64,000 nt of DNA from the NCBI GenBank assembly GCA_021780815.1, contig JAJXYC010000020.1, positions 5,046-69,045 on the forward strand, in the 5' to 3' direction. A program made the translations under genes and the position numbers. This stretch comes from Bacteroidota bacterium (GTDB lineage Bacteria > Bacteroidota > Ignavibacteria > Kapaibacteriales > UBA2268). The first letter of the stretch is position 1. The number at the start of each line of letters is the position of its first letter. Below, piece after piece: positions 10,537 through 20,531 of this stretch. Below the pieces are notes generated by a model. It made no database searches, was not told where the DNA came from, and saw only the letters and a list, made by a program, of their open reading frames with translations.

Positions 10537-11589
10537 ATGAATAGAAGGAATTTAATTAAACTTGCAGGAATTTCTATTGCCGCTCAATTATCTAATATTA
10601 AATTAGCCAGAAGTATGGAATTATATAATCAAAAACAAATTATAAAGCCAACAGCATTAAAAGAAGGGGATACCGTAGGTATTATTTCGCCAGCTACTGC
10701 TGTTACTTCGCCCGAAGATATTGAACAAGCAACATCAGTTGTAAAATTAATGAATTTAAAACCTATTTTCCCAAAGAACTTTTTTTCTAAAGAAGGGTAT
10801 AAAACACGCTCTCCAAAATTAAGAGCAGATGATGTAAATGAGATGTTTGCAAATCAAGATGTTAAAGCTATCTTTTGTATTCGTGGTGGATATGGAAGCG
10901 GAGGAATTTTACCATTCCTTGATTATAAAATAATTCAAAACAATCCAAAAATATTTGTAGGTTATAGTGATATTACAGCAATGCATCTTGCAATTAATAA
11001 AATTGCCGGGCTATCAACATTGCACGGTGCAGTATTGTTGTCTGATTTTGAGGGTAATACATTTGATTTATTGAAAAAAACTCTTTTTACAAATGAACCA
11101 CTTGGAGTAATTGCAAATCCCACAACTAATTCAATAAAAAATGAAAATCAAACAAGAACAATTATTTCTGGAAGTGCGAGAGGGCAATTGTTTGGAGGAA
11201 ATCTATCGTTAATTGTTTCTTTAATGGGTACTAAATATGAAATTGATACAGATAATAAAATTTTATTTTTGGAAGATGTTGGAGAAGAACCTTATAGGAT
11301 TGATAGGATGCTTACTCAATTAAAATTAGCAGGAAAATTTGATAATATTGCTGGTCTTGTATTTGGTAAATGCCAAGACTGTTCTCAAAAATCTGTTCCT
11401 GCAATATGGGATTATAGTCTTGCCGAATTACTTGATTTTCAATTGAAAGATATAAATAAACCTGTCTTTTATGGTCTTTTAATTGGCCATACCTCCATTC
11501 AATATCCTTTACCGCTTAATGTAGAAGCCAATCTTGATGCAGATAAAATGAATTTAACAATTGTCGAAAGTTTTTGTGAAAATTCTTGA
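10537..11589 (+). CDS. LD-carboxypeptidase (peptidase S66) with a Tat-like signal
   Basis: 350 aa. The N-terminus MNRRNLIKLAGISIAAQL resembles a twin-arginine signal. Contains the S66 nucleophile motif VGYSDITA, plus EDVGEEPYRIDRML and IGHTS. Confidence 0.75.
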   Translation: MNRRNLIKLAGISIAAQLSNIKLARSMELYNQKQIIKPTALKEGDTVGIISPATAVTSPEDIEQATSVVKLMNLKPIFPKNFFSKEGYKTRSPKLRADDVNEMFANQDVKAIFCIRGGYGSGGILPFLDYKIIQNNPKIFVGYSDITAMHLAINKIAGLSTLHGAVLLSDFEGNTFDLLKKTLFTNEPLGVIANPTTNSIKNENQTRTIISGSARGQLFGGNLSLIVSLMGTKYEIDTDNKILFLEDVGEEPYRIDRMLTQLKLAGKFDNIAGLVFGKCQDCSQKSVPAIWDYSLAELLDFQLKDINKPVFYGLLIGHTSIQYPLPLNVEANLDADKMNLTIVESFCENS

Positions 11590-11951
11590 ATGTAAAAAGT
11601 AAATTTATAAAAATACAAATTTATTTTTCTCATAAATTTATTTTTTGATTTTTTTCATTTGAGATTGTTTGAATAATGCAAGAAAAAGAAAAACAAAATC
11701 AAAATAAAATATTAACATTTGTTCATTATTTAATCAAAAAATATGTTTTAGTTTGCACTAATAAATTATTTTTTCTTAATCATTCGGAACTTATTATTTC
11801 CTGAATATATTGATAATCAATCATTTTAACCAATATAGAGTAAATTTAGTATTTCTATCGGGTAAAAAATAAATTTTGTTAATTCATTTTAATTTTTTAA
11901 TTTAGTTTTTGTATTTAAATAACATTTTAATAACATTCCTATGGAGGAAAT

Positions 11952-13055
11952 ATGACAAAGCTTCTTACCGTTATGAGAAGTGCTTTTTTACCGATTTTCT
12001 TTTTAGCATTAGCTTTCACAGCTTGCGAAGGTCCCAAGGGAGCAGACGGAGCAACAGGAGCAACAGGTCCACAAGGTCCACAAGGTCCGGCTGGTCCATC
12101 AGGTGCTCAACAATGCGGTGTTTGCCATAATAATTCAACTTTGTTGTTTGCAAAACAAAGCGAATGGGCACAATCACTTCATGGAACAGGCGAAATGTAC
12201 GTATATGGCAATCAATCTGATTGCGCATATTGCCACACAAGTCAAGGATTTTTGGAATACAACCAAACCGGCGTAAAACCAGTAACTGGTGCTCCATATT
12301 CTGACCCTGCAACAATCAACTGCCGTACTTGCCACAACGTCCATACTAACTACGATTCAACTGATTGGGGATTGAAAAGAACTGTCCCTGTTGCTTTCTA
12401 TGCTGCAACAGTTGCTTCGGCTGATTTAGGCAAAGGTAACCTTTGTGGTCAATGCCACCAAGCACGCCCATCAAGTACTCCAATTGATTTGACAAATCCT
12501 AATGCAACTATATCAATTACAGATATGCGCTTAGGTGCACATCACAGCCCAGCTGCAAACGTATACACTGGTTCTCTTCAATTTGTTCCAAATGGTAATG
12601 CAACAGTTCCAACATCAAATTATCACTCAATGGTAAAAGATGCTTGTGTTACTTGTCATATGGCTAATACTTATGTTGCGCATGGACAAGCAACTGGTGG
12701 ACATACATTTAAAACTGTATCCGATGATGGTACTATTTTCAATACTACTGCTTGCAAAGTTTGCCACACAGAAGTTGCTAACTTAACAAAATTCAATCAA
12801 ATCGGTAGTGGCTTTACTGATACATTCCAAACAGATATGGATAGTTGCGCAACAGTGATGATTCAGAAAGGTTGGATGACAGCATCAAAGAACTGGAATG
12901 CTTCATCCTCTAAACCATTAGTTGTTACTCAAAATGAAGCTGCGGCTATGTATGCTTATAACGCTCTTCAAGAAGATAAGAGTCAAGGTGTACATAATCC
13001 AAAATATGCAAGAGCTGTTTTAGATAATATTATGCAAGTTCTTGGGATCAAATAA
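11952..13055 (+). CDS. Lipoprotein hexahaem c-type cytochrome with a collagen-like Gly-X-Y stalk
   Basis: GGAGG RBS. Signal peptide plus lipobox-like LAFTAC. Eight uninterrupted G-X-Y triplets (GPKGADGATGATGPQGPQGPAGPSG). Six CXXCH motifs: CGVCH, CAYCH, CRTCH, CGQCH, CVTCH, CKVCH. Confidence 0.85.
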   Translation: MTKLLTVMRSAFLPIFFLALAFTACEGPKGADGATGATGPQGPQGPAGPSGAQQCGVCHNNSTLLFAKQSEWAQSLHGTGEMYVYGNQSDCAYCHTSQGFLEYNQTGVKPVTGAPYSDPATINCRTCHNVHTNYDSTDWGLKRTVPVAFYAATVASADLGKGNLCGQCHQARPSSTPIDLTNPNATISITDMRLGAHHSPAANVYTGSLQFVPNGNATVPTSNYHSMVKDACVTCHMANTYVAHGQATGGHTFKTVSDDGTIFNTTACKVCHTEVANLTKFNQIGSGFTDTFQTDMDSCATVMIQKGWMTASKNWNASSSKPLVVTQNEAAAMYAYNALQEDKSQGVHNPKYARAVLDNIMQVLGIK

Positions 13056-13071
13056 GTTATTTTTTAGATAG

Positions 13072-13112
13072 AAACTCCATTGTTTGCTTAATAATCAAAT
13101 AGTGGAGTTTTT
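13072..13112 (+). terminator. Weak hairpin after the hexahaem cytochrome gene
   Basis: aaactcca (13072-13079) pairs with tggagttt (13103-13110), followed by tt. The loop is long and the T-tail short. Confidence 0.3.
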
Positions 13113-13231
13113 CCAAAATGTTTATTAGAGATTTGAAAATAAAATACAATTATAAATAAATTTTATTATGTTTGTATTTTAATGTTTTCTTACGAAAGAA
13201 ATTCTTTATTTCATAAATTAAAGGAAGCCCG

Positions 13232-14500
13232 ATGAAAAAACTTACACTATTATTTTGCACGCTTTTAGCAATATCGTATTTAGGCTATTCCCGCCCAGAA
13301 TATTCAATTTTACAATCTTACGGGACAAAATGTTCTAATTGCCATGTTAACATACAAGGTGGTGGAGAACGCACACTTGGTGGATGGATGTCTCGCAATC
13401 AAACTTCAATCATAGACCCTTCTACAATTGGAATAGGGAAAATCTATGATTTTTTACAAAATACAAATCAAGCATGGAATGGGAAAATTACTTATGGGCT
13501 TGATTTCCGTTGGGAAGATGCTCGTTGGGGGTACCAAGAAGTTGTTCAACAACGTAACCCTCCATTGACCGACACAGTATTAAGCAAACCTTTACGGGAT
13601 AATATGATTATGCAATTTGACCCGTATTTGAGTATCAAACCTTTTGATTTTTTAGAATTAGAAGGTTTTTATAATTTTGCGTATGATATAGAACAATTTA
13701 AAAGATACCCAGGACAACAGCCTTATGCTTTCAGTATAAAGGTGAAACCTGCTGATTACTTACCTGAATTGAGAGTTGGATATTTCCAACCAGAAATAGG
13801 AACAAAATGGGACGACCATTCTTTATTGGTTCGTCAAGTTATTGGAAGTTCCCGTTCATCCTTATTAATCCCGGATGATTATGCTGAATGGGGCGCTGAA
13901 TTAGATTATGAATCAATTCCTTGGTTAGGAGTTGGACTTGGTGTATTTGATTCGAAAGTTATGAAAAATTTAACACTTCCGGACCAAACTGGCTCATCAA
14001 TACCAGTTGTTTCAGGAAACACCTCTTCTTTATTTTTTAAATTAGCTTTTTATCCACCTGAATGGATTCCTGGTTTTACTAATTTCTTCGGTGGATACTT
14101 TATGATGAATAGCCCATTAAAAACAGATAATGGCATATATTTTGCAAACAATTATTATGCAATTGGAGATTTGTTCTTTAACATAGGAATGACAGATAAA
14201 TTTGCACTTATGACTGAGTACATGTGGAGCAAAAAACAAGATTTGCGTACCACAAACAATTTATCATTTGAATTAACGTATCAACCATTAGATGCCGCTT
14301 ATGTATATGCAAGATACGAAGTGGGTAATACTGATTATTTGCCTGTAAGCACAAGTTATCATGCAAATCAGTATGTTCTTGGAGCTAAAGTGTTTTTGCT
14401 CCCATATATTGCATTAATACCTGAATACAGAGTTTTCGATAGAGCAAATGTACCTGGTTATTTTGCAGAATGGGCATTCCAATTACATATATTTTATTAA
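13232..14500 (+). CDS. Fused monohaem cytochrome c / outer-membrane beta-barrel protein (Cyc2-like)
   Basis: 422 aa. Sec signal, then a single CSNCH at residues 34-38. The body is amphipathic and aromatic-rich with strand-like segments. The C-terminus ...WAFQLHIFY ends in an aromatic residue. Confidence 0.65.
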   Translation: MKKLTLLFCTLLAISYLGYSRPEYSILQSYGTKCSNCHVNIQGGGERTLGGWMSRNQTSIIDPSTIGIGKIYDFLQNTNQAWNGKITYGLDFRWEDARWGYQEVVQQRNPPLTDTVLSKPLRDNMIMQFDPYLSIKPFDFLELEGFYNFAYDIEQFKRYPGQQPYAFSIKVKPADYLPELRVGYFQPEIGTKWDDHSLLVRQVIGSSRSSLLIPDDYAEWGAELDYESIPWLGVGLGVFDSKVMKNLTLPDQTGSSIPVVSGNTSSLFFKLAFYPPEWIPGFTNFFGGYFMMNSPLKTDNGIYFANNYYAIGDLFFNIGMTDKFALMTEYMWSKKQDLRTTNNLSFELTYQPLDAAYVYARYEVGNTDYLPVSTSYHANQYVLGAKVFLLPYIALIPEYRVFDRANVPGYFAEWAFQLHIFY

Positions 14501-14513
14501 TAAGGAGAAAACA

Positions 14514-14996
14514 ATGGAAAAGAAAGATATAACTAGAAGAGATTTTATTGTTAATACAGGAAAAGTAATTGGAGCAGGTGTTGTTGTAACAACTATTCCA
14601 CAGTTTTTGACAAGCTGTGAAAAAAACGAGACAGTTACTTTGCCACCACCTCCTTCTAATTTTTATACTTTAGATTTAACACCTTACCCTGAATTATTAA
14701 GTAAAGGTGGAGTAAGGAAAATAAAAATTGCAGGGAAAAACCAAGGTAATGATATTATTATTATTCACCATCAAGACGATTCATTTAAAGTGTTTGATAC
14801 AGTATGTCCACATCAAGGGTGTCCTGTTAATTCACCAAGTGATTCGGAAGCAACAATTGATTGTCCTTGCCATCCAAATGCATATTCATCAGTTACTGGT
14901 GATTGGGTTGCAGGTCCTTATTCAGGATTAGTTCTTAAAAGCTTTGAAGTTGGATATTTTGATGCAACGAAAAAAACATTAGAAATTAAAATTTAA
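14514..14996 (+). CDS. Tat-exported Rieske [2Fe-2S] lipoprotein
   Basis: Start moved to the ATG at 14514, which has an AAGGAG RBS; the track start at 14448 overlaps the previous gene. Tat motif TRRDFIV and lipobox-like LTSC. Rieske boxes CPHQGC and CPCH. Confidence 0.85.
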   Translation: MEKKDITRRDFIVNTGKVIGAGVVVTTIPQFLTSCEKNETVTLPPPPSNFYTLDLTPYPELLSKGGVRKIKIAGKNQGNDIIIIHHQDDSFKVFDTVCPHQGCPVNSPSDSEATIDCPCHPNAYSSVTGDWVAGPYSGLVLKSFEVGYFDATKKTLEIKI

Positions 14997-15035
14997 TTTT
15001 AGATTTTATTAATTCAATATTTTGGAGAAAAAACT

Positions 15036-15377
15036 ATGAAAAACTCAAAAACATTATTCGTTTCTTTATTAGCATTAGTTGTATTAGTTGGTGTTGTTTT
15101 TGCACAAACAAAAACAGGAAAAGATATTTTTATAGACTCAAAATGCAATACTTGCCATTCAATCAAATCACAAGAAATTGAATCAAAGCAAGCAGGTAAA
15201 TACCCAGATTTATCTGAAATTGGCAAAGCCGGTATTGATGAAGCAACATTGCAAAAATATCTTTTAAAAGAAGAATCAATTAAAGATAAAAAGCATGCTG
15301 TAAAATTCAAAGGAAGCGAAGAAGAATTAACTACTTTAGTAAAGTGGTTAAGTGGATTAAAAGGCGAAGACAAATAA
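15036..15377 (+). CDS. Periplasmic monohaem c-type cytochrome (paralogue 1)
   Basis: 113 aa with a signal peptide and one CNTCH. The mature protein has no Met. The only other His is in KKHAVKFKG. Confidence 0.85.
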   Translation: MKNSKTLFVSLLALVVLVGVVFAQTKTGKDIFIDSKCNTCHSIKSQEIESKQAGKYPDLSEIGKAGIDEATLQKYLLKEESIKDKKHAVKFKGSEEELTTLVKWLSGLKGEDK

Positions 15378-15416
15378 TTAATTTGTTTGTTTCACTAAAA
15401 CATTTAGGAGTACTAA

Positions 15417-15755
15417 ATGAAATTATATAAAGGCGTTATAGCCTTAGCAATAGCAGCTACCGTAGGATTTTCCTTACTACCCGCAGAGGAAGTTACAGGA
15501 AAAGATATATTTTTGAACAATAAGTGCAATACTTGCCATAGTATAAAATCGCAGGGAATTGAATCCAAAGTAGGTGAAGGTAAATACCCTGATCTTTCAA
15601 ATGTTGCTTCCAATAAATTTGAAAATGATTTTATTAAAAAATTCCTAATGAAAGAAGAAACATTAGATGGCAAAAAACATGCAATTAAGTTCAAAGGAGA
15701 CGACGCAGAACTCTCAAAACTCGTTGATTGGTTGCAAACTTTAAAGCAAGATTAA
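15417..15755 (+). CDS. Periplasmic monohaem c-type cytochrome (paralogue 2)
   Basis: 112 aa with a signal peptide and one CNTCH. It aligns end to end with the preceding gene (GKDIF..KCNTCHSIKSQ.IESK...KYPDLS...KKHA.KFKG). Confidence 0.85.
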   Translation: MKLYKGVIALAIAATVGFSLLPAEEVTGKDIFLNNKCNTCHSIKSQGIESKVGEGKYPDLSNVASNKFENDFIKKFLMKEETLDGKKHAIKFKGDDAELSKLVDWLQTLKQD

Positions 15756-15775
15756 AATAAACCAATGCGATAAAA

Positions 15776-15815
15776 ATAGGCTGTCGTTGATTGTCAAAGA
15801 CAGCCTATATTTTTG
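15776..15815 (+). terminator. Rho-independent terminator after the monohaem cytochrome pair
   Basis: ataggctgtc (15776-15785) pairs perfectly with gacagcctat (15799-15808), followed by atttttg. Confidence 0.7.
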
Positions 15816-15850
15816 AACTTCTTGAATTAGGTTTAACTAAAAGGTTAAAA

Positions 15851-17290
15851 ATGAAAAATTATAAACTCATATTGTATTTCTTAATGATGTTTTTGCTATT
15901 AAACATAGCAAAAAGTCAAAATAATCAAGTATGTTTAGACTGTCATAATGACCCTGATATGACAACTGAGAAAAATGGGAAAGAGGTGTCTTTGTATGTA
16001 AACAAAGCGGTTTTTAGTGTTTCTGCCCATGGAAAACTTCATTGTGTTGATTGCCACAAGGGTTTTAATCCTGATGATATTCCTCATAAAGCGAAAATTG
16101 AACCTATTAGCTGTAAAGAGTGCCATACAGCGCCTGTTGACAAACACAAGTTCCATCCTCAAATTGTTCAAGCAAATGGAATTAATGGCACACCTGATGT
16201 AAACTGTAAAGGTTGCCATGGCACACATGAAATTAAAACGAAAGATAGTCCTTCCTCTCCAATAAATTTTATGAACTCTGTAAATTATTGTGGAAAATGC
16301 CATACTCTTGAAAAAGACCAATATTACAAATCTGTTCATAATGTTCAATTACAAAAAAATAATCCTAATGCTCCTACTTGTATATATTGTCATAGTTATG
16401 AACTAACACCTATATCAAAATTAGATGGAGTTACCTTAAAACTTAATCAAGAAAAATTATGCCTTTCTTGTCATTTAGATGATAAAACAGGTAAAACAAA
16501 ATTTTCAAAATCTTTAATTGATTATAGTCAAAGTGTTCATGGACAGGCTATTGCTCATGGTAATGCAAATGCCGCAATTTGTACCGATTGCCATGGTACA
16601 CATGATTTAGAAAAGCAAAGTTCGCCAACATCTAAAATTAATAGAAAAAATGTAGCAAACGTTTGTGGTCAATGCCATCCGGGTATTGCTCAAGAATATA
16701 AAATGAGTGTTCATGGTATTGCTTTAATACAAGGTAACCCTGATGTTCCAACCTGTACTTTTTGTCATGGCGAACATAGTATTAATGCTGTTGTTGATGT
16801 TCCGTTGAAAATGTTTACTGATAACAAAATTAATCCACAAGCGGCAATTAAGACGAAAATGATTTATTGTATTAAATGTCATGGTAATGAAACTCTAATG
16901 GCAAAATATAATATTCTACCTTTTAATAAAGCACACGAATGGCTACCTGAATTAGAAAAACATAATGAAACAGTTCGTTGTATTGATTGTCATTCTTCTT
17001 ATGCACCTCCTAATCTTTCGCACAATCTTTTACCACCCGATAAAACTATTAAAAAGTGTGAAGAATGCCATTCTAAAAATTCAGTTTTAATGACAAAGTT
17101 ATATAAACACGAAAAAGAGCAATCCAGAGAAAAATATGGATTTATTAACGGTACCTTATTAAGTGATGCTTATGTAGTAGGGACTACAAGGAATGTTTTC
17201 CTTGATTCTTTTGCTATTCTTGCATTTGCTGTTGTAATTATTGGTATATTTTTTCATGGTTTAATGAGATGGTATTTCAGAAGGGGTTAA
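15851..17290 (+). CDS. Multihaem c-type cytochrome with 13 CXXCH motifs and a C-terminal TM anchor
   Basis: Start moved to the ATG at 15851; the track start at 15791 lies inside the upstream terminator hairpin. Signal peptide MKNYKLILYFLMMFLLLNIAKS. I counted 13 CXXCH motifs. C-terminal helix FAILAFAVVIIGIFFHGL. Repeated tri-haem modules are present. Confidence 0.85.
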   Translation: MKNYKLILYFLMMFLLLNIAKSQNNQVCLDCHNDPDMTTEKNGKEVSLYVNKAVFSVSAHGKLHCVDCHKGFNPDDIPHKAKIEPISCKECHTAPVDKHKFHPQIVQANGINGTPDVNCKGCHGTHEIKTKDSPSSPINFMNSVNYCGKCHTLEKDQYYKSVHNVQLQKNNPNAPTCIYCHSYELTPISKLDGVTLKLNQEKLCLSCHLDDKTGKTKFSKSLIDYSQSVHGQAIAHGNANAAICTDCHGTHDLEKQSSPTSKINRKNVANVCGQCHPGIAQEYKMSVHGIALIQGNPDVPTCTFCHGEHSINAVVDVPLKMFTDNKINPQAAIKTKMIYCIKCHGNETLMAKYNILPFNKAHEWLPELEKHNETVRCIDCHSSYAPPNLSHNLLPPDKTIKKCEECHSKNSVLMTKLYKHEKEQSREKYGFINGTLLSDAYVVGTTRNVFLDSFAILAFAVVIIGIFFHGLMRWYFRRG

Positions 17291-17291
17291 T

Positions 17292-19499
17292 ATGAATGGA
17301 CCAAAACATAAAATTTTTCTATATCCTTTATGGCTGAGAATTTGGCATTTGATAAATGCTGTTTTATTCATCTGCTTGATTCTTACAGGAGTGAGTTTGC
17401 ATTTCTCTGCTGATAATGCTTTGCTTTTTTCTTTTAGATTCTCTGTTATGATTCATAACATTTCTGGAATTTTGTTATCTCTAAATTATCTTTATTTCTT
17501 TATTTTCAATATTATTAAAGGTAATTATAAATATTATATCCCGAAACTCAAAGGATTAAAGAAACGGGTTATTTTGCAGGCAAAATATTATCTTCTGGGT
17601 ATTTTCAATCAAGAACCCCATCCATTTATGCCAAGCGAAGAATCGAAATTTAATCCATTGCAGCAACTTGGTTATGTAAGTATAATGTACTTATTAGTTC
17701 CAATCATAATTATTTCTGGTTGGGCTTTATTATTCCCTGAATATGCACCCGAAAACTTCTTTGGAATGGGTGGTGTTTGGCCTATGGCATTATTGCATAC
17801 AATAACAGGTTTTGCTTTGATTTTATTTGTATTTGTACATATTTACCTTGGAACTACGGGACATACAATCGGCGATTTATACAAAACTATGATTACCGGT
17901 TGGCATCTTTCTTATGATGATGAGCAAGAAGTTGCTCGTGAAACAGAAAAGCAATTGAAAAACGATAAAAGAACATTGCCTATTATACTTTATAATCCTA
18001 TTACCATAACTGGTTCTTTAATTGCAGGGATTACTTTTTTTGCTATTTTAGTTATGATGATTGTAGAACTATTAAGTACAAACACAAGTGCTTACACTGG
18101 GTTGGTTACTTTTGTTGCCTTGCCAACAGCTCTTGCCTTTGGTGTTGTTTTAATTATTTTTGGTGCTTTTCGTGAAAACAGAAGATTGTTACTTAATAAA
18201 AGTGGTAAAGTAGATAGGTTACCAATTCTTGATTTAAATAAGAGGAAACACCAAGCGGCTCTTGTTGTCTTTACTCTTGGCACTGTGATATTAATTGTTT
18301 CTACTATTTATGGTAGTTTTAAAGCATATGATTATATGGAAACTGACCAATTTTGTGGTAATGTGTGTCATAGCGTTATGCAACCTGAATATACGGCGTA
18401 TCAAAATAATATTCACTCTCGTGTTCATTGTGTGAAATGCCATATTGGACCTGGTGCTGATTGGTTTGTTAAATCTAAAATTTCAGGTTCTTATCAATTA
18501 CTTTCTGTATCTTTCAATTTATATTCTAGACCAATTAAAACTCCTGTGCATGATTTGAGACCTGCACCTGAAACTTGTGAACAATGCCACTGGCCTAATC
18601 AATTTTACAGCCAAAAACTTGTTGATTTTGATTTCTTCACTCCTGATGAACATAATTCGCACTACAAGATTCAAATGCTACTTAAAATTGGTGGTGGTAA
18701 TCAAGAAACCAGTCAAACATCCGGTATCCATTGGAAAATGTATATTCAAAATGAAATTTCTTATTATCCTGCTGATTTTAGAAGACAAATTATTCCTTGG
18801 GTACGTGTTAGAAATAAATTAACAGGACAAGAAACTTATTACGTTTCTACCGATTCTAAGTTTAAAATGACGGATTCCATTTTACGTAGCGGTGCTATTC
18901 GTAAATTTGATTGTATAGATTGCCATAATAGACCTGCACATGACTTTAAGATTCCTAATAATGTTGTTAATTCCTTTATGCTTGCATATAAAATTGACCG
19001 TTCTATCCCATATATTAAAAATATGGCAGTTCAAACTTTGGAATCTAATGCAATTAGTCAAGATTCCACATTAAAAGATATTAGACATTATCTTACTGAT
19101 TTTTACTCTCGTTTTTATCCTAGTGTCTTAACGGAAAACAAAGATGGATTAGAAAAATCAATTCGTTCTGTTGCTGAAATATTTTCCAAGAATTATTTCC
19201 CAAATATGCGTGTGAGCTGGCGAGCTTATCCTAATAATATTGGGCATATGTATGCGAAAGGCTGTTTCCGTTGCCATGATGGCAAGCACGTTAGTCCGGA
19301 AGGTAAGGTTATTAGTGCGGATTGCAACACTTGCCATTCTATTATTATGCAACAACCTCCTGATAAAGAAGCCGTTTTTGCAAAAGACCAAAACTTTATT
19401 CATCCAGGTGGTATGGATAAATTTGTACAATCAAGAATGTGTCCGGATTGTCATGCCGCTCTGCAAAAAAATGTGGTATTAGAACCAAGTAAACATTAA
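17292..19499 (+). CDS. Fusion of a b-type cytochrome membrane domain (HydC/FdnI/PhsC-like) with a NapC/NirT-like multihaem c domain
   Basis: 735 aa. It starts 1 nt after the preceding stop codon. The N-terminal ~200 aa carry LRIWHLINAV, KFNPLQQ, LLHTITGF and VHIYLGTTGH in 4-5 TM helices. Three further TM helices follow. The c domain has CGNVCH (CX3CH) plus CVKCH, CEQCH, CIDCH, CFRCH, CNTCH and CPDCH. Confidence 0.8.
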   Translation: MNGPKHKIFLYPLWLRIWHLINAVLFICLILTGVSLHFSADNALLFSFRFSVMIHNISGILLSLNYLYFFIFNIIKGNYKYYIPKLKGLKKRVILQAKYYLLGIFNQEPHPFMPSEESKFNPLQQLGYVSIMYLLVPIIIISGWALLFPEYAPENFFGMGGVWPMALLHTITGFALILFVFVHIYLGTTGHTIGDLYKTMITGWHLSYDDEQEVARETEKQLKNDKRTLPIILYNPITITGSLIAGITFFAILVMMIVELLSTNTSAYTGLVTFVALPTALAFGVVLIIFGAFRENRRLLLNKSGKVDRLPILDLNKRKHQAALVVFTLGTVILIVSTIYGSFKAYDYMETDQFCGNVCHSVMQPEYTAYQNNIHSRVHCVKCHIGPGADWFVKSKISGSYQLLSVSFNLYSRPIKTPVHDLRPAPETCEQCHWPNQFYSQKLVDFDFFTPDEHNSHYKIQMLLKIGGGNQETSQTSGIHWKMYIQNEISYYPADFRRQIIPWVRVRNKLTGQETYYVSTDSKFKMTDSILRSGAIRKFDCIDCHNRPAHDFKIPNNVVNSFMLAYKIDRSIPYIKNMAVQTLESNAISQDSTLKDIRHYLTDFYSRFYPSVLTENKDGLEKSIRSVAEIFSKNYFPNMRVSWRAYPNNIGHMYAKGCFRCHDGKHVSPEGKVISADCNTCHSIIMQQPPDKEAVFAKDQNFIHPGGMDKFVQSRMCPDCHAALQKNVVLEPSKH

Positions 19500-19526
19500 A
19501 ATTTTTCATTTTTATGCTACCTAAGT

Positions 19527-19566
19527 AGAGGCTGTCTCAAAAAGAGATAGCCTCTTTTATTTTTTC
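19527..19566 (+). terminator. Rho-independent terminator closing the cytochrome cluster
   Basis: agaggctgtctc (19527-19538) pairs with gagatagcctct (19544-19555), with one G-T wobble, followed by ttttatttttt. Confidence 0.7.
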
Positions 19567-19634
19567 CTATTAGTAATATCAATTATTGGAATAGTTTTTG
19601 ATAATATAAAATAAATACAATAAAAAGATAAAAT

Positions 19635-20531
19635 ATGAACTTATCGCAAGCAAACAGATGTTTTCTGGATTATTTAAAAACTGAAAAAAACTTTTCGGAA
19701 AGAACATTATTAACTTATCATTATGCTCTTGACAATTTTTATGAATATTTTAAGGAAATATTTGTTGAAAATCCAAATGTTTGTGAGATTGAAATAGATG
19801 ATATACGACCTTTCTTAGGTTGGCTACAAGATAAAGGATTTGCTCGTAATTCTATTAGATTGAAATCTTCCGCTTTGAAATCTTTTTTTAAATTTCTCTT
19901 TAAAAAAGAATATATTGATAACAATCCGGCTAAATCGCTTTCAACTCCCAAGCGAAAAAAAAATTTGCCAAACTTTTTAACTGAAAAAGAAATTTCAAAT
20001 TTACTTCTAAATTTTGATGGTAATGGTTTTGAAAGTATTAGAAATAAGTTTCTTATACAGATGATTTATGGTTCAGGTCTTAGAATAAGCGAAGCTTTAA
20101 ATTTAAAAATAGGGGATATTGATACTGTAAATAAGACAGTTAAAGTGTTAGGAAAAGGGAATAAGGAAAGAATTGTTCCAATGGGGACAAACACAATTGC
20201 TCTTTATGAAAAATATATAAAAAGTAAAAATAAGTGTGTTAATTCATCTAAATTTGTTTTTGTGTCTGGCACAGGAAACAAAATGAGTTATTCTTCAGCA
20301 TATAAAATTATTCATAGAGAAATTAAAAAAATAAGCGATGTTAAGCAGAAATCACCCCACACATTAAGGCATACATTTGCTACACATTTGATTAACAATG
20401 GTGCAGACATTCGCTCGGTTAGTGAGATGTTGGGACATAGTTCGTTGTCTTCAACGCAAATCTACACCCATCTTTCCATTGATAAATTGAAAGATATTTA
20501 TTTTAAAGCACATCCAAAAGCTGAAAAATAG
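19635..20531 (+). CDS. Tyrosine recombinase XerC/XerD family
   Basis: 298 aa. SAM-like N-terminal domain. Catalytic residues in RISEAL, LGKGNKER, HTLRHTFATHL and LGHSSLSSTQIYTH. Confidence 0.8.
   Translation: MNLSQANRCFLDYLKTEKNFSERTLLTYHYALDNFYEYFKEIFVENPNVCEIEIDDIRPFLGWLQDKGFARNSIRLKSSALKSFFKFLFKKEYIDNNPAKSLSTPKRKKNLPNFLTEKEISNLLLNFDGNGFESIRNKFLIQMIYGSGLRISEALNLKIGDIDTVNKTVKVLGKGNKERIVPMGTNTIALYEKYIKSKNKCVNSSKFVFVSGTGNKMSYSSAYKIIHREIKKISDVKQKSPHTLRHTFATHLINNGADIRSVSEMLGHSSLSSTQIYTHLSIDKLKDIYFKAHPKAEK

Follow-up and report, generated by a model that had tools for sequence, protein, structure and literature searches.

Must a porin that carries a haem of its own be a Cyc2, and what could such a protein do in an operon in which most other genes encode cytochromes? 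The question is raised by the open reading frame 13232..14500 (+ strand, start ATG, 422 amino acids) in a stretch of 64,000 nucleotides from a Bacteroidota bacterium, which is here called the window. A sequence-only reading had classified the product as a Cyc2-type protein. Structural modelling supports this in terms of architecture, a monohaem cytochrome fused to a 16-strand porin as in Cyc2, and the protein is termed haem-porin below. As judged from sequence, however, it appears to belong to a separate, uncharacterised and unnamed family and not to the Cyc2 family as defined by Keffer et al. in 2021.

Haem site and barrel

The N-terminus of the haem-porin (MKKLTLLFCTLLAISYLGYS followed by RPEY) is a typical Sec signal, and the signals of its orthologues finish with AYA, ANA or LNA ahead of a conserved RP, as in AXA-type cleavage. 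CSNCH at residues 34-38 (nt 13331-13345) is the sole CXXCH and is part of a clade motif that reads ARPQYSILQSYGTKCxxCHxNxQGGGxR. As C34, C37 and H38 are invariant in the alignment of 48 close homologues and unchanged in all 150 family members of a full-length alignment, the CSNCH is no chance match, and in the larger alignment also P22, G31, G43-45, R47 and G51 are conserved to at least 87%. The Sec signal, the single haem motif and the aromatic C-terminus WAFQLHIFY, all pointed out from the sequence before, are thus genuine, and a loss of the CXXCH in close orthologues, which had been named as a possible objection, is not seen in any of the 48.

The AlphaFold2 model, based on the 48-sequence alignment, has a mean pLDDT of 82.6 and a pTM of 0.80, with 16 long beta-strands predicted in residues 86-421 and pLDDT values of 74-89 in residues 31-80. 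The segments that the sequence-only reading had described as strand-like come out as real strands, and of the 16-18 strands that it had expected of an AlphaFold barrel, 16 were obtained. Best PDB matches in Foldseek were OprO (4rjw, E 1e-9) and OprP (2o4v, E 1.6e-9), each with a probability of 1.00, a value reached by many 16-strand porins; PorB, Omp32 and OmpT were among the further hits. Porins of the OmpF/OprP class are built of 16 antiparallel strands, which are joined by long loops outside the cell, among them the in-folding L3, and by short turns on the periplasmic side, and they end in an aromatic residue; the strand and loop pattern predicted for the haem-porin, which terminates with QLHIFY, is that of this general fold. 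Strands 5 and 6 are joined by a long loop (residues 186-218) with a near-invariant D195-H196-T197, and strand 2 contains M127, which is 97% conserved in the 150-sequence alignment. A motif-bearing Cyc2-like protein from Ralstonia, modelled by the same pipeline, likewise has 16 strands and a long 5-6 loop, and its best matches in the PDB are also porins with 16 strands.

A family of its own

Sequence searches with the haem-porin in Pfam, NCBIfam and the PDB gave no match. When 1.84 billion representatives were searched at E<=1e-3, the family came to about 281 clusters (50% identity), and all members that have any name are called 'hypothetical protein'. It occurs in Ignavibacteria/Kapabacteria (Ignavibacteriota) and in MAGs of Myxococcales/Myxococcota. 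The 63 close loci come from 63 species-level genomes, every one of them a MAG and none from a cultured organism. The examined papers that deal with Chlorobi Cyc2, with how iron oxidation originated or with the similarity network of Fe(II) oxidation do not mention the family, and no publication on extracellular electron transfer in Kapabacteria came up in a literature search. In the 150 sequences its signature consists of the invariant CXXCH, GGG-x-R, M127/Q128, the D-H-T loop motif and a C-terminal Q-x-H-x-[FW]-[YF]. It is proposed that proteins with this signature and an adjacent gene for a Tat-exported Rieske protein form a new family, the Rieske-associated haem-porins, to which the protein of the window would belong.

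Relation to Cyc2

Keffer et al. filter for AXPXFAR[Q/K][T/Y] (or PXFAR[Q/K][T/Y]) upstream of the CXXCH, a motif described as unique to Cyc2, and further demand a signal peptide, a single CXXCH near the N-terminus, a PXL about 4 residues past the CXXCH, a length of at least 365 amino acids, a 16-stranded OprO/OprP-like porin domain, and a BLASTP E<=1e-5 to a cluster query or a hit with a FeGenie HMM (PMC8406198). The haem-porin has the signal peptide, the one N-terminal CXXCH, the length and the predicted 16 strands with OprO and OprP as templates, but not the two motifs. Upstream of the haem site it reads S-R-P-E-Y-S-I-L-Q-S-Y-G-T-K-C (A-R-P-Q-Y-S-I-L-Q in the clade), and downstream CH-VNIQGGGER (family consensus CH-x-N-x-Q-G-G-G-x-R), whereas the Cyc2-like references have CH-VSF-PEL. 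The counterpart of the upstream motif in the broad family, A-[LI]-P-[QR]-[FY]-[SA]-L-x-T-G, contains half of it, in that the A, the P, the aromatic and the small residue are common, but R and [Q/K] never occur.

For comparison, Cyc2-like proteins were collected by tblastn of an N-terminal peptide against plasmids and one subsequent protein search. The haem-porin scored 1.6 bits with an HMM of these 122 motif-bearing proteins, which are all of the Burkholderiales/Acidiphilium type, as distinct from the biochemically validated Cyc2 (PV-1, the chromosomal copy of A. ferrooxidans, Cyt572), and its best BLASTP match among the 122 had an E of 0.014. In profile-profile comparisons by hhalign, the close clade of the haem-porin reached a probability of 9-32 against the Cyc2-like proteins, and an alignment of four Cyc2 sequences was uninformative. 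The broad family reached 94-96 (E 8e-9 to 2e-7), which is modestly better than the 77-80 (E 2e-5) of an unrelated cytochrome c used as control. The likeness is confined to some 20-34 N-terminal columns round the haem site, where the residues of the broad-family A-x-P-x-F-[SA]-L-x-T-G-x-x-CxxCH are spaced like those in the AVPAFARQTGMACMACH of Cyc2-like proteins, and the barrel never aligns. The Cyc2 assignment of the sequence-only reading is therefore supported for the architecture but not for the family, FAR[Q/K] and PXL being absent. Fe(II) oxidase activity, a further criterion of Cyc2, is possible for the haem-porin.

The operon

The haem-porin gene lies in an operon (11952-19499) that encodes, in this order, a hexahaem lipoprotein, the haem-porin, a Rieske protein, monohaem cytochromes c, a 13-haem cytochrome and a fusion of cytochrome b with a multihaem domain (Table 1). 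The order is conserved in the clade, where the last two genes are often, but not always, present.

Table 1. Features of the haem-porin gene cluster (positions in the window)
Feature	Position	Strand	Basis
MtrC-like hexahaem lipoprotein cytochrome	11952..13055	+	six CXXCH; Pfam PF22113
Sec signal peptide of haem-porin, residues 1-20	13232..13291	+	read from sequence; orthologue cleavage sites
Haem-binding N-terminal region of haem-porin, residues 21-85	13292..13486	+	conservation, pLDDT
Predicted outer-membrane beta-barrel of haem-porin, 16 strands, residues 86-422 and stop codon	13487..14500	+	AlphaFold2, Foldseek, conservation
Tat-exported Rieske [2Fe-2S] lipoprotein	14514..14996	+	Pfam Rieske E 2e-11
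Class I monohaem cytochrome c, periplasmic, copy a	15036..15377	+	Pfam Cytochrom_C E 8e-6, one CXXCH
Class I monohaem cytochrome c, periplasmic, copy b	15417..15755	+	Pfam Cytochrom_C E 5e-9, one CXXCH
13-haem c-type cytochrome, C-terminal transmembrane helix	15791..17290	+	thirteen CXXCH
Inner-membrane PhsC/HydC-type cytochrome b and NrfH/NapC-like fusion	17292..19499	+	Pfam/NCBIfam, six CXXCH
Intrinsic terminator-like hairpin, closes cluster	19527..19555	+	12-bp stem, 6 G-C pairs, then T-run

The Rieske protein, which had already been noticed behind the haem-porin, has a twin-arginine motif (TRRDFI), a lipobox (LTSC35) and the cluster boxes CPHQGC and CPCH, and its closest solved relatives are the arsenite oxidase subunit AioB and the Rieske proteins of bc1/b6f complexes. 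Its start is likely the ATG at 14514, because the Tat motif follows this ATG; the alternative ATG at 14448 was rejected, as it overlaps the porin gene. A Tat-exported Rieske lipoprotein is a recurrent partner of the haem-porin family: its gene adjoins that of the haem-porin in 47 of the 63 close loci, with no Rieske recognisable by tblastn in about a quarter of them, and among the 48 Rieske sequences examined (the window included) the Tat motif is found in 46, the lipobox in 40, and the cluster ligands C-x-H...C-x-x-H in all. Also in the distant subfamilies a Rieske gene adjoins the porin gene, there on its opposite side, in five of seven informative loci, and is absent in the other two.

Directly upstream of the haem-porin, as likewise noticed before, is the lipoprotein cytochrome. 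Its lipobox Cys25 is followed by nine collagen-like G-X-Y triplets (residues 27-53) and the six CXXCH, and it resembles the pentahaem domain of MtrC/OmcA, with the MtrC/MtrF domain II/IV (PF22113) found above the cutoff (E 7e-11) and TIGR03507 (OmcA/MtrC) below it (E 7e-9). In about 50 of the 63 loci the porin is immediately preceded by such an ORF, with six haems (five in two loci) and 3-11 G-X-Y triplets, and with a single exception the triplets begin one residue past the lipobox Cys. The G+C content is raised at 12-14 kb of the window; horizontal transfer was rejected as explanation, since the rise might simply stem from the cytochrome genes and from the collagen-like segment, which is rich in Gly, Pro and Ala.

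Downstream, most loci have kept copy a of the cytochrome c behind the Rieske gene. The 13-haem cytochrome, the true start of which is probably an internal ATG at about 15851, matches the cytochrome c7/c3/NrfB and DmsE families and is kept in about 36 of the 63 loci at 43-78% identity. The fusion, which is also kept in about 36 loci, consists of a dihaem cytochrome b (residues 5-205; PF01292, E 6e-25; NF011582 PhsC, E 2e-52, with 178 bits against a cutoff of 204) and a multihaem c domain with the six CXXCH (NrfH, E 1e-11), and by its sequence it is likely a quinol/quinone-coupling module with a CbcL-like layout. The hairpin behind it is the sole strong terminator-like site of the + strand in 11400-19800. 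Many loci lack this inner-membrane module and retain the four-gene core of hexahaem lipoprotein, porin, Rieske and cytochrome c, which stands alone in loci L009, L010 and L025; L018 has the core layout too, with a gene at the Rieske position that is not recognised as Rieske. In marine Myxococcota and other MAGs the porin-Rieske pair occurs without multihaem cytochromes, often with a YceI-like gene, in two loci of distant subfamilies a redoxin gene is near the pair, and a distant paralogue of the haem-porin is paired with a non-haem lipoprotein. The suggestion of the sequence-only reading that the haem-porin acts in a larger complex is strongly supported by the conserved gene order in the 63 genomes.

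Proposed electron path and its direction

The haem-porin, with its Cyc2-like design, its separate family and its Rieske partner, is best regarded as the part of a chain for extracellular electron transfer that resides in the outer membrane, to which reading we assign a probability of roughly 55%. H38 would be the proximal ligand of the haem, and the distal ligand would probably be either M127 of strand 2 or H196 of the 5-6 loop that folds inwards, which is a guess; the conservation of M127 fits a His/Met ligation. The haem may sit in the barrel or at its mouth, again a guess, and electrons would pass through the outer membrane. At the periplasmic side the haem-porin may swap electrons with the Rieske lipoprotein and this in turn with the small class I cytochromes c. 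The operon would add the MtrC/OmcA-like hexahaem lipoprotein on its collagen-like tether at the outer-membrane side, and the 13-haem cytochrome together with the cytochrome b/NrfH fusion at the inner-membrane side, which would complete a path between the quinone pool and the cell exterior. The operon probably carries electrons across the entire cell envelope.

With regard to the direction, the favoured view is that a periplasmic chain of high potential takes up electrons from Fe(II) or reduced minerals outside the cell, and an outward flow is also possible. The preference is due to the high-potential character suggested by the AioB/bc1/b6f-like Rieske protein, in which CPHQGC and CPCH supply the disulfide cysteines, by the class I cytochromes c, and by M127; the Cyc2 of Mariprofundus PV-1, which oxidises Fe(II) at +208 mV (PMC8406198), points the same way. 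Against the proposed path, Keffer et al. placed the haem of Cyc2 at the periplasmic mouth (PMC8406198). If the haem had this position also here, one haem could not bridge to the hexahaem cytochrome at the surface, and another role or another site would have to be sought for this lipoprotein.

Alternative explanations

Outward flow has rather less than an even chance. In this case quinol would feed the cytochrome b/NrfH fusion, from which electrons would move over the 13-haem cytochrome to cytochrome c, then to the Rieske protein, and leave through the haem-porin for the hexahaem cytochrome at the surface, where an anode, humic substances, Fe(III) or Mn(IV) would receive them. That the genes for the multihaem proteins and the cytochrome b/NrfH fusion resemble modules of metal reducers argues for this direction, as do the MtrC/OmcA-like lipoprotein, the DmsE/NrfB-like cytochrome and the PhsC and NrfH parts of a quinol-dehydrogenase-like fusion, and some Ignavibacteria reduce Fe(III), and the group becomes enriched on anodes (PMC7399161). 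However, the inner-membrane module is missing from many core loci, and a bc1/AioB-type Rieske protein and class I cytochromes c are unusual in low-potential metal reduction, though outward flow to acceptors of high potential would be compatible with them. It is unlikely that the haem-porin is a true, highly divergent Cyc2 that alone oxidises dissolved Fe2+ entering the pore, with its neighbours as mere downstream carriers. Architecture and structural templates are those reported for Cyc2, full-length Cyc2 pairs can be as low as about 15-20% identical (both PMC8406198), Cyc2-like genes have been reported in MAGs of Ignavibacteriaceae (PMC6344600), and spacing and profile score of the broad family agree with such an origin. 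On the other hand, the missing motifs, the low HMM and BLASTP scores and the weak close-clade profile match without any aligned barrel speak against it, the profile search yielded 281 clusters where thousands would be expected were Cyc2 proper in reach, and the inspected Cyc2-like loci continue with a c-type cytochrome gene instead of a Rieske gene.

The occurrence of the pair without multihaem cytochromes, its frequent YceI-like neighbour, the redoxin genes and the paralogue with a non-haem lipoprotein would be in line with another redox task at the outer membrane, such as oxidation of Mn(II) or sulfur compounds, reductive iron uptake or oxidant defence, the multihaem genes being a clade-specific addition, but this is quite improbable, as no conserved enzyme for such substrates adjoins the pair and the links to YceI and redoxin rest on few loci. 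That the protein is an ordinary diffusion or nutrient porin with a CXXCH of no redox role agrees with the general 16-strand fold and is nevertheless very hard to believe, since none of the 150 sequences, which come from two phyla, deviates from the CXXCH and the surrounding genes encode nearly exclusively redox proteins.

Implications

Beyond the reading of the haem-porin as an outer-membrane element of electron transfer, it may be tentatively considered, with the odds clearly against it, that haem-porin and Rieske protein are a third, minimal and previously unrecognised trans-outer-membrane conduit beside the MtrCAB type and Cyc2, present in at least Ignavibacteriota/Kapabacteria and Myxococcota, and that the operon of the Ignavibacteria type forms a trimeric complex in which the collagen-like stalk trimerises the hexahaem lipoprotein to match a trimeric porin. 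If so, a porin with a single haem could transfer electrons to or from minerals in solid form, a capacity that present models of Cyc2 deny to such proteins.

Cyc2 is the main metagenomic marker gene for inferring microbial iron oxidation. As the haem-porin family escapes the Cyc2 motif filter and stays below the BLAST threshold with the tested Cyc2-like set, iron cycling may be mis-scored in groundwater, sediments and ferruginous lakes that are rich in Ignavibacteria and Kapabacteria. With the recurrent Rieske lipoprotein, a haem-porin has a specific candidate partner in the periplasm that can be put to the test, and such partners are uncertain for Cyc2. The compact conserved operon is a candidate for the reconstitution of a complete envelope electron path, from the surface multihaem lipoprotein to the quinone-coupled cytochrome b, and as no cultured member of the lineage carries the gene, a reconstituted system may be the sole route to testing.

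Comparison with known systems

The trimeric porins of the OprO/OprP and OmpF class are the best structural matches of the haem-porin (TM 0.46-0.54, E ~1e-9) at a sequence identity of 9-12%, but they have neither haem nor redox partners. Like in the MtrCAB, MtoAB and PioAB systems, the gene of an outer-membrane barrel lies beside those of an MtrC/OmcA-like lipoprotein and of multihaem cytochromes, and the operon plausibly joins the quinone pool with the cell exterior. The barrel of MtrB, however, has 26 strands and sheathes the decahaem MtrA, whereas the haem-porin is predicted to have 16 strands and has its own single haem. It is thus not a large haem-free barrel around a periplasmic decahaem cytochrome as MtrB, PioB and MtoB are, and no match to the MtrB family was found in Pfam or NCBIfam. 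Geobacter CbcL consists of a HydC/PhsC-type cytochrome b fused with a multihaem c domain, as does the fusion of this operon; the latter has six c-haems and CbcL nine, and the two are alike in their architecture. The OmbB-OmaB-OmcB type of Geobacter, which is known also in Ignavibacteria, likewise has its genes for a porin, a multihaem lipoprotein cytochrome and cytochromes of the periplasm in one cluster (PMC7399161), but its porins are haem-free and of other families, and a Rieske partner of such complexes is not mentioned in the literature examined (PMC6344600, PMC7399161).

With the Cyc2 proteins (Cyc2 of Acidithiobacillus ferrooxidans and of Mariprofundus ferrooxydans PV-1, Cyt572 of Leptospirillum) the haem-porin shares the Sec signal, the one N-terminal CXXCH, a size of about 400-450 amino acids, the OprO/OprP-modelled 16-strand barrel with its long 5-6 loop, and the A-x-P-x-aromatic-small residues before the haem site. 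It differs from them by the absence of the FAR[Q/K][T/Y] core, of PXL and of significant full-length similarity, and its clade by a two-residue insertion ahead of the haem site. Cyc2 is partnered with a gene of the cytochrome c4/Cyc1 type, whereas the haem-porin, unlike Cyc2, is flanked by multihaem cytochromes and has the Rieske lipoprotein as its partner.

Fold and family of the haem-porin

The haem-porin gene lies where the sequence-only reading had placed it and encodes 422 aa, with the Sec-type signal peptide, the lone CXXCH (CSNCH, residues 34-38) and the C-terminus ...WAFQLHIFY that had been described. The strand-like segments noticed in that reading correspond to a barrel: an AlphaFold2 model built on a 48-sequence alignment is confident (mean pLDDT 82.6, pTM 0.80) and has 16 long strands spanning residues 86 to 421, with short turns on one side, longer loops on the opposite side and a 33-residue loop joining strands 5 and 6. 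Its best Foldseek matches in the PDB are OprO (4rjw) and OprP (2o4v), both 16-stranded porins, at probability 1.00.

The sequence itself has no match in Pfam, NCBIfam or the PDB sequence library. A word-indexed search yielded 58 homologues with 40-99% identity from Ignavibacteria/Kapabacteria-type MAGs, the named ones all being "hypothetical protein", and a profile search of 1.84 billion representatives gave only 281 clusters at E<=1e-3, the distant ones with named members from Myxococcales/Myxococcota and from Ignavibacteriota MAGs. Loss of the CXXCH in orthologues was not seen, as C34, C37 and H38 are invariant in 150 full-length members, in which P22, G31, G43-45, R47, G51, D91, R93, M127, Q128, G183, D195-H196-T197, R361, E363, E398, R400, Q417 and H419 are also 87-100% conserved. 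The haem site is thus under strong selection, and the sixth haem ligand may be M127, H196 or H419. In the literature searched, no description of this family or of a Rieske-coupled haem-porin was found; the "Cyc2-like" or iron-oxidation genes that others have reported from Ignavibacteriales MAGs might be members of it, or might not.

The cytochrome cluster

The c-type cytochrome genes of the 64-kb window are all in a single same-strand cluster (11952-19499) that is closed by a strong terminator-like hairpin, and the haem-porin gene follows a hexahaem lipoprotein gene and precedes a Rieske gene, as had been read from the sequence.

Features of the cytochrome cluster in the window
Feature	Position	Strand	Remarks
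1, hexahaem lipoprotein	11952-13055	+	Cys25, then nine G-X-Y triplets; MtrC/OmcA-like domain
Collagen-like run of gene 1	12027-12110		residues 26-53
Region of raised G+C	12001-14000		0.376; flanks ~0.27-0.30
Inverted repeat	13071-13115		8 bp, then T-run; just 3' of gene 1
2, haem-porin	13232..14500	+	422 aa
3, Rieske protein	14514-14996	+	Tat signal and lipobox; boxes CPHQGC, CPCH
4, two class I monohaem cytochromes c		+	after the Rieske gene
5, 13-haem cytochrome		+	membrane helix at C-terminus
6, PhsC-type cytochrome b fused to NrfH-like six-haem domain	17292-19499	+	735 aa
Terminator-like hairpin	19527-19555

The nearest relatives of the Rieske protein are AioB and the Rieske proteins of bc1/b6f complexes. 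The last gene encodes one protein that combines a PhsC/HydC-type cytochrome b, the NrfH-like domain and further c-haems (six CXXCH in total; its score with the thiosulfate reductase cytochrome b model is 178 bits); no sequence-related solved structure was found for this fusion, the layout of which we take to be CbcL-like. The inverted repeat (AAACTCCA ... TGGAGTTT) may act within the cluster as a weak terminator or attenuator, uncoupling expression of the hexahaem lipoprotein from that of the remaining genes, and the raised G+C content likely stems from the cytochrome genes together with the collagen-like segment, which is rich in Gly, Pro and Ala.

This collagen-like segment, which matches the (PKG)10 collagen peptide and collagen-like adhesin models, recurs: the hexahaem lipoprotein is encoded upstream of the haem-porin in about 50 of 63 loci, each time with 3-11 G-X-Y triplets, and in all loci but one the run begins one residue past the lipid-anchor cysteine. 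A stalk of this kind is not known to us from any other multihaem cytochrome; it could hold three lipoproteins together to fit a trimeric porin, or serve as a long tether.

Pairing of the haem-porin with a Rieske protein

Gene order is conserved across the 63 species-level genomes surveyed, all of which are MAGs. A Rieske gene lies downstream of the haem-porin in 47 loci, always with the four cluster ligands, and the two inner-membrane genes are found in about 36. Three loci (L009, L010, L025) have only the four-gene core of lipoprotein, porin, Rieske protein and cytochrome c; L018 is laid out in the same way, with a gene at the Rieske position that is not recognised as such. Distant paralogues (~31% identity) keep the Rieske gene and have a non-haem lipoprotein upstream, and in more distant subfamilies, including those of Myxococcota, one or two Rieske genes are on the opposite side of the porin gene. 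Two distant subfamilies have no Rieske neighbour. The pairing persists despite changed gene order and across phyla, and it is the strongest functional clue.

Some of these loci have further peculiarities. The ~31% identity paralogue is of high G+C in L054, L056, L057, L058 (9184-11960) and L062, where a 99-aa membrane protein and a Rieske lipoprotein follow and multihaem cytochromes are absent; L058 is a MAG contig labelled Melioribacter roseus P3M-2, a label that looks unreliable. Two tandem Rieske genes precede the haem-porin gene in some subfamilies (L072, 4485-5433; L074, 1063-2058), with an AhpC/thioredoxin-like gene close by on the other strand. Distant loci, among them those of Myxococcota type, often have a YceI-like gene after the pair (L071, 8234-8815; L076, 7430-8047; a JGI contig). 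YceI proteins reside in the periplasm and their ligands are polyisoprenoids or quinones; this neighbour may point to a connection with quinones at the outer membrane.

The Rieske protein of the window clade has the bc1-type extra cysteine pair (CxHxGC ... CxCH), whereas many orthologues have CPHQG-V ... CPKH instead. Past the lipobox, its mature N-terminus is acidic (C-E-K-[DN]-E), and because this presumably resembles the surface-lipoprotein export signal of Bacteroidota, the Rieske protein might even be exposed on the cell surface.

Proposed electron path and direction

The system combines a barrel in the outer membrane, whose haem site is conserved, with an exported and likewise conserved Rieske partner and small cytochromes c; the window clade adds multihaem and quinone-linked modules within the same operon. 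The haem, in the barrel or at its mouth, would relay electrons between the outside of the cell and the Rieske cluster, and from there they would pass to the cytochromes c. These may in turn serve terminal reductases or oxidases encoded elsewhere in the genome, or alternatively the 13-haem protein, the cytochrome b fusion and the quinone pool.

We favour an inward route, with Fe(II) or reduced minerals as the source of electrons, because the conserved core carriers are high-potential in kind, because the core module often occurs without a quinol-oxidising partner, and because the best-studied protein of the same design oxidises Fe(II). Electrons may instead run outward to acceptors of high potential, a rival that is to be taken seriously. 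Geometry is a difficulty: Keffer et al. argue that the haem of Cyc2 closes off the barrel at the periplasmic mouth and is accessible to dissolved Fe2+ alone. Were it placed likewise here, a surface hexahaem lipoprotein could not wire to it directly. The solution would be a haem placed higher in this barrel, a lipoprotein that faces the periplasm, or a link through a diffusible iron species.

Comparison with Cyc2

Cyc2 is defined by five features: a signal peptide, one CXXCH, the motif AXPXFAR[Q/K][T/Y] upstream of it, which is called unique to Cyc2, a PXL motif downstream, and a length of at least 365 aa including a 16-strand OprO/OprP-like porin (Keffer et al. 2021, PMC8406198). Of the Cyc2-type identity claimed from the sequence, the architecture stands, but the two Cyc2 motifs are not matched: the haem site reads SRPEYSILQSYGTK-CSNCH-VNIQGGG, compared to AVPAFARQTGMA-CMACH-VSFPEL in Cyc2-like references. 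These references were motif-bearing genes on plasmid records of Ralstonia, Ideonella, Methylocystis and Acidithiobacillus, and the set was enlarged by >3,900 relatives. Against an HMM of 122 Cyc2-like proteins of Burkholderiales/Acidiphilium type, the haem-porin scores 1.6 bits, and the lowest BLASTP E-value against the same proteins is 0.014.

In distant members of the haem-porin family, the N-terminus (A-L-P-R-F-A-L-Q-T-G-x-x-CxxCH) is spaced as in Cyc2, with A, P, F, A/S, T and G in common. In hhalign, the broad family aligns to Cyc2-like profiles with probability 94-96 (E 8e-9 to 2e-7), over only 20-34 N-terminal columns, whereas the unrelated class I cytochromes c of the haem-porin operon, used as a control, give 77-80 (E 2e-5) and the close-clade profile alone gives 9-32. 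A Cyc2-like protein put through the same modelling pipeline likewise has 16 strands, of which the fifth and sixth are joined by a long loop, and its best PDB matches are also 16-strand porins.

Motif-bearing genes are present on large plasmids of Ideonella (L064, 2459-4543), Methylocystis (L066, 2321-4747) and Acidithiobacillus ferrooxidans (L067, 2390-4686), in all three with a c-type cytochrome gene 3' of them; plasmids of Ralstonia, Paraburkholderia, Caballeronia and Acidiphilium also carry matches. The Rieske pairing of the haem-porin is absent from the Cyc2-like loci inspected. In our reading, based on this plasmid-derived set and its relatives, the haem-porin falls outside Cyc2 as currently defined; the two are of the same design, and a very distant shared ancestry is possible.
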